Shown here one piece after another: positions 19,408 to 26,688 of a stretch of DNA of 40,267 nucleotides. Numbering within the stretch: the stretch's first letter is position 1; each line of letters starts with the position of its first letter. Source of the DNA: Chlamydiota bacterium (GTDB taxonomy: Bacteria > Chlamydiota > Chlamydiia > Chlamydiales > JAJFMK01); contig JAJFMK010000154.1 of the NCBI GenBank assembly GCA_021772215.1, forward strand, positions 1-40,267, written 5' to 3'. The notes under the pieces are model-generated. The model worked only from the letters and a program-made list of their open reading frames with translations, was not told the DNA's origin and ran no database searches. The position numbers and the translations under genes are program-made.

Positions 19408-22400
19408 ATGCCCATAGCTTCAAAACGGGAGGCATTAATGGCTAATACTCTACCTTTTTCCAAAGACTTTCTAGATAGTGGAAGATCCCTCCTCAAAGAA
19501 AAGCTTGAAGCTAACCTTGCACGAGAGGGAGCTAAGATCGACCCAATCCAAAAAACGATCAAGCTAATTGATGGCATTTTAAAATCTACTTCTGCAGATA
19601 GAGCAGACTCCCTATCAAACTTACGAGGTCGACTCTCCTACCCTCAAGAAATCTCCTCTAAAGAGATCTCCATTCTCGTCGAAGATCTTAAGAGCCTCAG
19701 CAAAACCATCGATGAATTAGCGCCCCCTCTTATCAATCTAGCTATCTTCTATGAAGATGCTGCCAGCCAAGATCTCCCCCAATCCACGGTACGGATTAGA
19801 GGTGATCTCATCGAGCCCCACCTGATCACACAGAAGCTCGCCTTAAAGCTACTCTCTCGCAACCGCTACGGTGATATCCTAAAATCTAACGAATCTGGTA
19901 ACCATCCTGTCATCTCATTTGGCGGCGTCCATCTAAAAAGTGCCACAGAAAATGACCCCCTAGACACCGGAATGGAGACAGCTGTCTACCTCCTCCACAC
20001 GCTCCTCCTAGGCGAAGAGAACGCCGGCATTGCCCCTTCTTCACTCCTCTGTCTTGAAAATGTTGAAATCAAAGAGCTTGAAGAAAGCGTACAGCTAAAT
20101 GAGACAGAGCAAGATCACCTTGAAGAGGCTGTCTGGAACAACCAAAGAAGCCTCTTCTACCGCCACCATCCACAGCTCACAGCAGCAGCTAAACCCCGCT
20201 CCTTTGCCCTGCAAGCTTCGATGAGTGTTGAAGGAGAACGGCTTGACGAACTTCTTGATCGTAAAGAAAAGCTCTCCTTCGATCCAGAGAATTTCAGCGC
20301 ACTTATTCTAGCCAGCTTCCTAACAATACCATCGGATAACAAACCTGACAACTTCATGGTCGCCTACGACCACTCAAAAGGAAAGGTTGTCGCCAGGCTA
20401 GTCGGGATTGATAACGATATGGTTTTTGCCTATCCGCTAAACGTCATCCCTGCCGGCGGCGGCAAAAAAGAACATGTCGTTTCACTAAAAAACGCTCTCT
20501 ATTTCTTCGATCAGATGATGAGAAAACCAGTAGACCCTAACGTTAGGAAAAGAATAGGAAACCTTAATCCTCTTCTCCTAGGCATAGAGTGGGCAGCAGC
20601 AGTTGCTAAGCAAAATCAGCGTTATGAAAGACTCTCAATCGAAAAAAAAGATCAAGCCTCTCTCCCACTCCGCTTCACCCCAAGTACCCTTCATAACCTG
20701 ATTGAAAACCTCCAGACGCTACAGAAGATTCTATCTGACCCAAGCACAAAATTTGTGACACATCAAGAGCTCTTTCGCCACCTCTTCCCCGTGATCGAAC
20801 GTTTCTATCGCGGATTGGGTGAAGATATGGGATCTACAAAGGAGAAGGTAGAAAACCTCTTTTCGATTGGACTTCCTCCTTTAGAGAAGTACCTCAACTT
20901 GAGAGAGCCCCTAGAAGATGGCCGTACTGTTGCAGAAGCCCTCGATTCCGAGAATAAAACAGCAAGGGCCCAAAAAGAAGAGAGAAAATCCTCAATCGAA
21001 GATCTCTCTTTAACTATTCTTGCTAGCACTGATCTCTCTCTCCTACCCCCTCAGGATCAAGCTGCCCTTCTCGAACTTGTCGCTTCCCATTTTCCTCAAA
21101 TCGCAGATAGAAATGATCTCCACCCAAGCTGGCAATCCAATGGATTAGCTCACCTGCTGGTTAAAGAGGGCTGCACAAAAAAAACACTGCTTTTTCTACA
21201 CAGCCTCGGTATCGACATCGCATCATTAAATGAACAGCATGAAACTATTCTTTTCGCAATGGTGAGAGATGATAAGCGGTATTGTGACCATCTAACCGAC
21301 GAGCTGCTAAAACTGCTTCCTCTAGAAACTCAAAATAGTAACGGCCTCACCGCTTTAGACGTCGCTATGGCAGAAAAATCTATCCCCAGTTTCAACCGAC
21401 TCATTCGAGCAGGAGCTGGGACCCACGCAAGCTCAACAGCCGCTTTAAGCTTTTACAATGAGACTGTCAAGGACTCAACTGACCCCGAACTCCAACAATC
21501 TTTTCAGAAGCTCGCTCAAATTAACAGCCTTGTTAACTGGAAAATGGCTTGGGAAACTATCCTGCCCAAGCAGTGCCAAGAAGGGACACCCGTTAAGAGC
21601 GCCTTAAATGGAAATAGAGCACTAACCCAAGAAGCTGCTAAGCAGCTCTGGACACAATCTGGAGCTATCAACAAAGTTAACACGTCCGGAAGGCGCTCTG
21701 TAGGAAGAATCACCATCGGCCAATTTACCCTCTACTTCAAGCAGGCCCCAGAGCTTCCCGGCTTAGAACAGGCTGTAGGTACCCTAACACAGCAGATCAT
21801 GGGTTTTGGAACACCCCACACCGACTTGGTCAGCATTAACGGCGTTCCCTACCTCGTGTCTCAAGGTATTGAAGGACTTAATTTACAAGAAGTCATCGAA
21901 AAAAATCCGGAACAGATCGCCCAACTTGATAAAACTGCCCTTTCTCAGCTACTGCTCATGACGATGCTGATTAACCCTGAAGATGGCAAACCAGACAATT
22001 ACATCGTTCAGCCAAAACCCAACCAAAAGGGTTATCAAATCGTCAGTATTGATAATGACCACGCCTTTGTGCCAAGCGTCGCAAAGGAGACGTTCTTTCA
22101 GAGCAAGAAAAACCGCGTTCAGGTCAAGACGATTCTCTACTGCCTCGAACAGATGAATACACCTATCGACCCTAAAGTGCGTGACCAGTTCCTCAACCAC
22201 GACCCGGCAGAGATCCTATCCTCTTGGCTAGGTCATCTCACGGCTGTTCATTCTATTTATCACAGCCTATTTACAGACAAAGAGCGAAAACAGCTCTTCA
22301 ACACCCACGGAACCTATGTAGGCGTTCCCTTTCGGCCAGAAATGGTAACGGCTCTATACCGTAAGATGGTCCAGATGCAGTTTCTCTTAAGCAGACATCA

Positions 22401-26688: not shown

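Follow-up and report, generated by a model that had tools for sequence, protein, structure and literature searches.

A single polypeptide assembled from eukaryote-like modules raises the question of what a bacterium would use it for. The open reading frame (ORF) at 19408..26688 on the + strand of the window (the whole stretch of 40,267 nucleotides analyzed here) encodes such a protein, which the original prediction, made from the letters alone, took to be a giant host-interaction protein. To answer the question we asked if the reading frame is real, what its modules are, and where else they occur together.

The reading frame and its orthologues

The ORF is single and intact, with 2426 codons from the listed ATG. 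The ATG at 19438 (M11 of the listed ORF) is more likely to be the true start than 19408, because GGGAGG lies 5 nt before it and because the orthologue P0001 begins there, its N-terminus (MANTLSF) standing at the residue equivalent to M11. The ORF product has neither a signal peptide nor a Walker A motif. The features are as follows, with residues numbered from the listed start.

19361..19390, +: promoter-like TTTCCA-18-TATAAT, 5′ of the gene, from a consensus scan alone, which is not functional evidence
19408..26688, +: whole ORF, 2426 codons as listed, 2416 with the start at 19438
19427..19440, +: Shine-Dalgarno-like hexamer GGGAGG (19427-19432) and ATG 19438, from reading of the sequence and the start of P0001
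19408..19764, +: N-terminal region (aa 1-119), without signal peptide or recognised domain, common to P0001 only
19765..20904, +: kinase-like domain D1 (aa 120-499) with a ~55-aa N-lobe insertion, from BLASTP against D2, hhalign and conservation
21172..21420, +: ~2.5 degenerate ankyrin repeats (aa 589-671) in the D1-D2 linker, from a sub-threshold Ank_2 match and the family profile
21622..22566, +: kinase-like domain D2 (aa 739-1053), from the AF2 model, Foldseek against the PDB, BFVD and invariant residues
22930..23373, +: ~5 cysteine-containing (FBXL-type) LRRs (aa 1175-1322), from a sub-threshold LRR_4 match and the family profile
23443..24702, +: 14 tandem 28-residue RI-type LRRs (aa 1346-1765), from LRR_6, TRF and the 28-aa register
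24919..25407, +: ~4 Sel1 repeats (aa 1838-2000), from Sel1 Pfam and phrog_8741 on the same stretch
25570..25812, +: charged coiled-coil-like segment (aa ~2055-2135), from weak coiled-coil matches and composition
25615..26685, +: Tox-ODYAM1 (Pfam aa 2070-2329; family conservation to aa 2426), from PF15642 and orthologue alignment
25942..26082, +: Gly/Ala-rich hydrophobic helical hairpin (aa 2179-2225) within Tox-ODYAM1, from Kyte-Doolittle values and alignment

A mosaic of this kind could be an artefact in which separate genes were joined by a frameshift or the repeat array was misassembled. Assembly errors are common in repeat arrays, and the number of RI-type LRRs is unequal between orthologues, P0002 having only 2-3. 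However, P0001 (80% identity over 1652 aa, as far as its contig end) and P0002 (72% identity in the N-terminal part and 68% in the C-terminal part) come from two other, independent assemblies, and in each of them the modules follow one another as they do here, within one ORF; P0024 has the same overall plan. In addition, the LRR repeats are just 78% identical in DNA, so that collapse of the array is unlikely. Judged from these sequences, fusion of separate genes by frameshift or misassembly is unlikely, and we regard the artefact as very improbable. A fusion error of this kind was what the original prediction had named as a possible refutation. An extra insert of ~130 aa in P0002 looked OTU-like by eye, for which Pfam gave no support.

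The next gene downstream is convergent and 110 bp off, and no same-strand immunity-gene candidate follows. Neither a secretion signal nor secretion-system genes were found within the window.

Kinase-fold domains D1 and D2

The kinase-like parts matched nothing in Pfam (E≤1, including PF00454), in NCBIfam or in a PHROG scan, and the profile of the kinase-like domain matched no PDB sequence. An AF2 model of D2 from a 35-sequence alignment reached a pLDDT of 92.8 and a pTM of 0.90; an earlier model from a 9-sequence alignment had a pLDDT of 65, with kinase matches that were non-significant. When the D2 model was compared with the PDB by Foldseek, 285 matches were obtained at E≤1e-3, and the best 50 of the 285 were all kinase-fold. 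The best match was PI4KIIα (4hnd_B, E 5.9e-7, TM 0.48, probability 1.0), and 9 of the 11 top matches were PI4KII, followed by CtkA and CaMK-type kinases. The PI4KIIα and PI4KIIβ matches (E 6e-7 to 1e-5, identity 13-17%) had TM-scores of 0.43-0.49, and because these are below 0.5 they make the kinase fold class secure, though not the subfamily or the substrate. Against the BFVD viral library, phage proteins with PI3/4K domains ranked first.

Type II PI 4-kinases (4hnd, 4pla, 4wtv) were the nearest structural neighbours of D2, with the catalytic-loop and IDN[DG]xAF motifs in register. D2 differs from them in that the CCPCC palmitoylation loop is not present and the domain is tandem-duplicated within a giant repeat protein. 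The hhalign profile comparison with PI4K2A, whose sequence was verified against 4hnd_A, was not significant (1.7% probability, E 0.029), with the motifs in register: the best local alignment placed NPEDGKPDN over NTDRGNDN and IDNDHAF over IDNGLAF. In D2, K778 is the β3 Lys, E787 the αC Glu, D859-x4-N864 lies in the catalytic loop NPEDGKPDN, and D882 in IDND is the DFG-equivalent.

D1 and D2 matched each other by BLASTP (E 1e-13), and their profiles aligned by hhalign over 288 columns (E 7e-50), indicating whole-domain homology. K177, E190, D310, N315, D335 and D337 of D1 were nearly invariant in the family alignment, and the Lys/Glu/Asp/Asn/Asp catalytic set of both domains was invariant or at least 90% conserved among 25-35 diverse relatives. 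Judging by these residues, D1 and D2 are probably catalytically active. The two kinase-like domains of the original prediction were confirmed by modelled structure and family profiles only, and by no curated sequence model. The Legionella LegK family, LepB and MavQ are kinase-fold effectors of intracellular bacteria, from which the query protein differs in tandem arrangement and size. H. pylori CtkA was among the top structural matches of D2, and a sequence relationship to effector kinases was not detected.

Repeats and the C-terminal domain

In the single sequence, the predicted ankyrin repeats remained below the Ank_2 cut-off (E 0.017). Ank_2 was matched in 7 of 25 family members, and the family profile aligned with the ankyrin consensus at 99.4% probability (hhalign, E 9e-22), compared with 0.1% for a control region, which bears the repeats out at the family level. 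The same holds for the cysteine-containing LRRs, where LRR_4 was sub-threshold (E 2.5e-4) and the family profile matched a CC-LRR consensus at 99.7% probability (hhalign, E 4.6e-26); among homologues, the FBXL-type LRR Pfam models PF23622 and PF24758 were found in 6/25 and 4/25, respectively. The F-box-like motif that had been proposed along with these LRRs was rejected: no F-box or F-box-like Pfam model matched aa 1111-1350 at E≤1, and the family pre-LRR profile gave 1% probability against an F-box alignment (hhalign). The CC-type LRRs are like those of FBXL and GALA proteins, but the query has no detectable F-box, in contrast to F-box/LRR effectors such as Ralstonia GALA and Legionella LegU1/AnkB. 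Three family members have an N-terminal F-box-like domain.

The predicted count of 14 RI-type LRRs agreed with LRR_6 (E 1.3e-63, 13 stretches) and with the DNA, in which TRF found 13.8 copies of an 84-bp period at 23485-24647 with 78% matches. The Sel1 repeats were likewise recovered by Pfam (E 7.3e-13, 2 significant stretches), with phrog_8741 on the same region (E 5.5e-17). We also considered an NLR/STAND protein and rejected it, as the original prediction had done, since there was no Walker A motif and no Pfam NTPase (NACHT/NB-ARC) by the LRRs.

The long coiled coil is plausible, in that aa ~2055-2135 were matched by coiled-coil proteins only, and weakly (E 0.1-2). The C-terminal hydrophobic hairpin is present at aa 2179-2225, but it is not just a hairpin, as it lies inside the known Pfam domain Tox-ODYAM1, which the original prediction had missed (PF15642, E 1.5e-11, a score of 39.8-44.4 bits where 25 is the cut-off, spanning positions 133-380 in a profile of 385). 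The Tox-ODYAM1 region could be aligned with P0002, P0038 and P0082, all of which keep the hairpin, whereas it is deleted in P0024. Although the hairpin is the most hydrophobic stretch of the protein, its hydrophobicity is moderate (KD19 maximum 1.38 at aa 2208, against the usual 1.6). A weak match to the NCBIfam alpha-xenorhabdolysin subunit A was seen (E 0.009), its 15 bits falling far short of the cut-off of 125. The profile of the C-terminal domain matched only coiled coils in the PDB, with no structural or functional precedent, and a word-indexed search of proteins in which the last 416 aa served as query gave no match, for which saturation of the candidates by coiled-coil words may account.

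The Pfam family Tox-ODYAM1 goes back to a polymorphic-toxin survey (PMC3482391), and its occurrence with Sel1 has been described in Odyssella and Amoebophilus, such effectors of amoeba symbionts being interpreted there as mostly host-directed (Zhang et al. 2012, PMC3482391). The query protein resembles the Odyssella and Amoebophilus proteins in the Sel1 repeats that precede a C-terminal all-alpha Tox-ODYAM1. Those proteins have been described with a signal peptide, a lipobox, an APD1 prodomain and an OTU-like peptidase (Tox-PLOTU); in the query neither signal peptide nor OTU was found, and it differs in having a tandem-kinase/LRR chassis.

A modular family and its possible role in the host

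A query for related loci with the single protein returned no relative; a 5-sequence alignment found them. With the profile of the kinase-like domain, 1,679 cluster representatives were obtained, 631 of them at E≤1e-30. Most relatives are proteins of 1,000-5,000 residues with the core D1-ankyrin-D2-LRR and variable C-termini, in which patatin, Sel1, Tox-ODYAM1 and WD40 modules occur. Among 159 proteins that were examined, 104 had D1 ahead of D2, and the median distance between the two was 314 aa. Hundreds of proteins in the databases carry the kinase-ankyrin-kinase-LRR core with exchanged C-termini, and the domain combination, which had seemed without described counterpart, is not a one-off. 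The MAGs with relatives belong to Dependentiae, Paracaedibacteraceae and Holosporales, among other lineages, and a single genome frequently has several paralogues, or an array of them; the lineages in question are known as protist endosymbionts. N-terminal hydrophobic segments were present in 24 of 145 family members, indicating that the export route is not uniform across the family. Giant repeat-rich proteins of protist symbionts are usually annotated merely as 'ankyrin', 'LRR', 'RanGAP' or 'hypothetical'. A literature search found no published description of the D1/D2 kinase family, which does not prove its absence.

The original prediction had pointed to the lgr genes, and the comparison proved apt. 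The LGR proteins (LgrA-F of Protochlamydia amoebophila UWE25) have a non-LRR part of 1353-1369 aa, in which no function was found in 2007, and then 5-18 units of 28-mer RI-like LRRs from aa 1338-1368 (Eugster et al. 2007, PMC2216083). Compared by this published description, the layout of the query is alike: ~1,350 non-LRR residues are followed by 28-residue RI-like LRRs, 14 units beginning at about aa 1346-1351. Both have an N-terminal part without a transmembrane domain, and both belong to paralogous gene families and, in the case of the query probably, to amoeba symbionts. The LGRs end at the LRR array, whereas the query continues for ~660 residues (Sel1, coiled coil, Tox-ODYAM1). The LGR repeat consensus was absent from the best 150 of the 1,679 family representatives.

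Our best explanation, which we hold to be somewhat more probable than all others combined, is that the protein is a modular effector with which an intracellular bacterium acts on its eukaryotic host, probably a protist. That it is host-directed is what we infer from the eukaryote-like modules, the relatives in endosymbiont lineages and a C-terminal domain assigned by Zhang et al. (PMC3482391) to host-directed toxins of amoeba symbionts, with all of which the giant host-interaction protein of the original prediction is in keeping. Neighbouring genes in the window, among them those for a J-domain protein and a tyrosine phosphatase of eukaryotic type, also speak for an effector, as do the missing immunity gene and the lack of a PADLOC match. 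Such an effector would be translocated without a signal peptide and would act at a host location. The conserved chassis of ~1,350 residues, with two type II PI4K-like kinase-fold domains joined by ankyrin repeats and then cysteine LRRs, would be accompanied by protein-binding surfaces formed by the 14-unit RI-LRR array and the Sel1 repeats. The coiled coil and the Tox-ODYAM1 hairpin might tether or insert the protein at a host or vacuolar membrane, where the kinase domains could phosphorylate a lipid head group (phosphoinositide-like) or a protein. A broader proposal, which we put forward tentatively, is that D1-ankyrin-D2 represents a large family, so far without annotation, of PI4KII-like kinases in tandem, whose substrates might be lipids. 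Protist endosymbionts that are not related to each other (Dependentiae, Holosporales/Paracaedibacteraceae and some Gammaproteobacteria, perhaps also chlamydiae with their LGRs) would use this family as an effector chassis. Exchangeable toxins or enzymes at the C-terminus, such as patatin and Tox-ODYAM1, would make it the host-directed counterpart of polymorphic toxins.

Because repeats make up most of the protein, it could instead be an exported scaffold of the surface or vacuole membrane, with pseudokinase domains, that acts solely through LRR, ankyrin and Sel1 binding; the hydrophobic hairpin could then serve as an Inc-like membrane anchor, and many 'kinases' among bacterial effectors have proved atypical. 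The complete Lys, Glu, Asp, Asn, Asp set in both domains, distant relatives included, argues for catalysis, and we consider such a scaffold unlikely. Even less probable is an antibacterial weapon, in which Tox-ODYAM1 would be the exchangeable toxin and the repeat-rich N-terminal part would serve in delivery or presentation. The origin of the family in a polymorphic-toxin survey, the conflict of Odyssella within its own species (both PMC3482391), the C-terminal placement and the family-wide swapping of C-terminal modules all resemble polymorphic toxins. However, the convergent gene downstream leaves no place for an immunity gene, the trafficking domains RHS, filamentous-haemagglutinin, LXG, WXG and PT-TG were not found, nor was a signal peptide, paired kinase domains are ill-suited to a delivery stalk, and proteins of the Amoebophilus type were read as host-directed by Zhang et al. 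(PMC3482391).

An equally doubtful alternative is a cell-intrinsic sensor or signalling protein, such as an LRR-kinase immune receptor akin to ROCO/LRRK or an NLR-like defence protein, with the LRRs for ligand sensing and the kinases for signalling. LRR arrays beside kinases are typical of receptors, and so are expanded sets of paralogues that differ in their number of LRRs; the orthologue P0002 has few RI-LRRs. Against this, no NTPase, Roc, NACHT or Walker A was found and the PADLOC models did not match the protein, the C-termini resemble toxins or lipases (Tox-ODYAM1, patatin), and the relatives found so far sit in endosymbiont-type lineages. With no trafficking domain, no immunity gene and no PADLOC match, the polymorphic-toxin and defence-system readings were rejected in favour of the host-directed effector.

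Hundreds of giant repeat-rich proteins have this pair of kinase-fold domains in common, their catalytic residues intact, which makes an otherwise unreadable class testable: phosphoinositide or protein substrates could be sought, and the family, though no one-off oddity, merits biochemical study. The LGR proteins of Protochlamydia might also acquire a function. If the tandem PI4KII-like chassis is real, the 'non-LRR domain' of the LGRs, 1,350 residues long and left without explanation in 2007, would for the first time become open to functional study. The swapping of C-terminal modules amounts to a natural catalogue of host-directed activities. No established concept is altered, as modular eukaryote-like effectors were already expected in such bacteria.

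Integrity and repeat modules of the giant gene

19408-26688, + strand: giant ORF, 2426 codons, ATG start
19361-19390: promoter-like site upstream of the giant ORF, consensus match only

An open frame of 2426 codons is too long to have arisen by chance. A fusion artefact as its source is very unlikely, because the module order is preserved, within a single reading frame, in two orthologues from other assemblies. The closest, P0001, is 80% identical across 1652 aa, at which point its contig ends, and P0002 is about 68-76% identical (72% in the N-terminal part and 68% in the C-terminal part). 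The listed start at 19408, from which residues are numbered here, is probably ten codons too early and the protein 2416 residues long, because GGGAGG (19427-19432) lies 5 nt upstream of ATG 19438 and P0001 starts at exactly the residue encoded there. The downstream neighbour is a convergent gene 110 bp away.

The original prediction, which read the protein as a mosaic of eukaryote-like modules, was largely right, the exceptions being its F-box and a C-terminal toxin-related domain that it missed. The predicted 14 ribonuclease-inhibitor-like (RI-type) leucine-rich repeats (LRRs) were recovered in the protein as fourteen 28-residue units (aa 1346-1765), at DNA level as a periodicity of 84 bp (13.8 copies, 78% matches, 23485-24647) and by Pfam as LRR_6 (E 1.3e-63, 13 stretches). 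Sel1 repeats were likewise matched (Pfam, E 7.3e-13). When family profiles were compared with idealised, hand-written consensus sequences, the region between the kinase-like domains (aa 570-700) matched the ankyrin consensus with 99.4% probability (E 9e-22; control region, 0.1%), and aa 1165-1345 matched the cysteine-containing LRR (CC-LRR) consensus with 99.7% (E 4.6e-26), better than the RI-type consensus. Both assignments agree with the prediction, and Pfam matched Ank_2 in 7 of 25 family members and FBXL-type LRR models in 6/25 and 4/25. As had been stated, the protein has neither a signal peptide nor a Walker A motif; an N-terminal hydrophobic segment was present in 24 of 145 relatives. 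The F-box-like motif proposed just upstream of the CC-LRRs was not supported, with no Pfam match at E ≤ 1 and 1% probability by hhalign against a partly hand-assembled F-box alignment. Three relatives carry an F-box-like domain, at the N-terminus rather than before the LRRs.

Compared by published description, aa 1-1765 follow the same plan as the Protochlamydia LGR proteins, in which a non-LRR part of 1353-1369 residues precedes 5-18 RI-like 28-mers beginning at aa 1338-1368 (PMC2216083). No function was found for the LGR non-LRR part in that 2007 study. Homology with the LGR proteins, suggested by this shared layout, is a strong lead rather than a result; the LGR repeat consensus was carried by none of the best 150 of 1,679 family matches.

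Tandem kinase-like domains and their relatives

The two kinase-like domains, D1 (aa 120-499) and D2 (aa 739-1053), had no match in Pfam (E ≤ 1), NCBIfam or PDB sequences. Each is a homologue of the other (BLASTP, E 1e-13; profiles aligned across 288 columns, E 7e-50), and both contain D-x-K-P-D-N followed by I-D-N-D, motifs also present in the few word-indexed homologues. D1 has an N-lobe insertion of ~55 residues. Built from 9 sequences, an initial AF2 model was of low quality (pLDDT 65), and its structural matches were non-significant, though all were kinases. The model of D2 from a 35-sequence alignment of D2-type domains reached pLDDT 92.8 and pTM 0.90, and Foldseek returned 285 PDB matches at E ≤ 1e-3, with the kinase fold in the best 50 of the 285. 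Within these best 50, type II phosphatidylinositol 4-kinases ranked first (4hnd_B, E 5.9e-7, TM 0.48), followed by H. pylori CtkA and then by CaMK-type and other protein kinases. In a viral structure library, phage 'PI3/4-kinase catalytic domain' proteins came first and Ser/Thr kinases second. Compared by profile, the catalytic domain of PI4K2A, its sequence verified against 4hnd_A, gave no significant match (1.7% probability); the best local alignment placed NPEDGKPDN on NTDRGNDN and IDNDHAFVP on IDNGLAFPL.

The catalytic sets K177, E190, D310, N315 and D335 of D1 and K778, E787, D859, N864 and D882 of D2 were invariant or nearly so among 25-35 diverse relatives. The structural matches of the D2 model and the conserved catalytic residues of both copies thus confirm the predicted kinase-like assignment as to modelled fold and active-site pattern. 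Judged from sequence, both domains look catalytically competent, for a substrate of the lipid or the protein class.

The aligned kinase-like domains, used as a profile in an exhaustive search, recovered 1,679 cluster representatives at E ≤ 1e-3 (631 at E ≤ 1e-30). Nearly all of the best 150 are 1,000-5,000 residues long with two or three domain copies. The architecture, which the original prediction did not know as a described combination, is not unique: D1 precedes D2 in 104 of 159 sequences examined (median gap, 314 residues). The CC-LRR region is common to 67 of these 159 by simple phmmer, the RI-type LRRs to 47 and the C-terminal domain to only 3. Array length and modules vary even between close relatives, because P0002 (locus L002) has 2-3 RI-type LRRs instead of 14 and, at residues ~1150-1310, an extra segment of ~130 residues before the Sel1 repeats, which had no Pfam match.

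Among species-representative genomes, 23 loci were found, several genomes having more than one, in MAGs of Candidatus Dependentiae, Paracaedibacteraceae, Holosporales, other Alphaproteobacteria, one gammaproteobacterium and one verrucomicrobium. At one Dependentiae locus (PRDV01000027), at least four consecutive paralogues of ~1,900 aa are interrupted by a patatin-LRR gene; one other relative has ordinary housekeeping neighbours. Database names of the relatives are generic only ('ankyrin', 'LRR', 'RanGAP', 'patatin-like', 'hypothetical'), and a limited literature search found no paper on this tandem kinase-fold family. On the best reading, the giant protein is a modular effector directed at the host, and its tandem kinase-fold chassis is widespread but unannotated; its secretion, activity, substrate and membrane targeting are inferred. 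Modular effectors of this kind are known.

The C-terminal domain

The C-terminal hydrophobic hairpin of the original prediction is present (aa 2179-2225), but the domain enclosing it, Tox-ODYAM1 (PF15642; aa 2070-2329, scoring 44 bits where the cut-off is 25), had been overlooked. The hairpin is the hydrophobicity maximum of the protein, yet a moderate one (KD19 1.38). It is kept in P0002 and in two further relatives, P0038 and P0082, and is deleted in P0024, whose C-terminus is otherwise related. By sequence, the domain has no match among solved structures. Tox-ODYAM1 was defined in proteins of Odyssella and Amoebophilus as an all-alpha domain that accompanies Sel1 repeats and an OTU-like peptidase (Zhang et al. 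2012; PMC3482391). Those authors read such endosymbiont toxin-like proteins as mostly host-directed because immunity genes are lacking.

Within the coiled-coil part, aa 2071-2122 (25618-25773) gave a very weak NCBIfam match to alpha-xenorhabdolysin binary toxin subunit A that is insignificant alone (E 0.009; 15 bits, cut-off 125). Long helices and a hydrophobic hairpin also occur together in pore-forming toxins of the alpha-xenorhabdolysin type.

Gene neighbourhood

The giant ORF lies in one stretch of the window together with the genes for a J-domain protein and a tyrosine phosphatase of eukaryotic type, and LVIVD/He_PIG paralogues flank this stretch.

212-11315, + strand: three LVIVD/He_PIG paralogues
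13707-14180: YlqD-family protein, first of three tightly packed genes (13707-17105)
14182-15324: eukaryotic-type protein tyrosine phosphatase (Y_phosphatase, E 1.4e-17)
15321-17105: 594-aa protein with C-terminal J-domain and internal hydrophobic stretches, overlapping the phosphatase gene
17299-18684: 461-aa ORF within the window's only low-GC stretch (about 35% versus about 44%)
26798-39982, - strand: four LVIVD/He_PIG paralogues

The three packed genes may form a small effector operon. The 461-aa ORF had no Pfam or NCBIfam match and one weak PADLOC match ('E1-E2' model, E 7.5e-4, 16 bits). The seven LVIVD/He_PIG paralogues, about 1,070-1,310 aa long and arrayed in opposite orientations around the central region, each combine LVIVD beta-propeller repeats with 5-7 He_PIG (dystroglycan-type Ig) domains; in the one that was read (7929-11315), the N-terminus includes a hydrophobic segment and the C-terminus a segment resembling a membrane anchor. 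Between the two arrays, no long inverted repeat was found at DNA level. A short intergenic inverted repeat follows the third LVIVD gene (11382-11423/11534-11575), with 42-nt arms that are 83% complementary and 110 nt apart.
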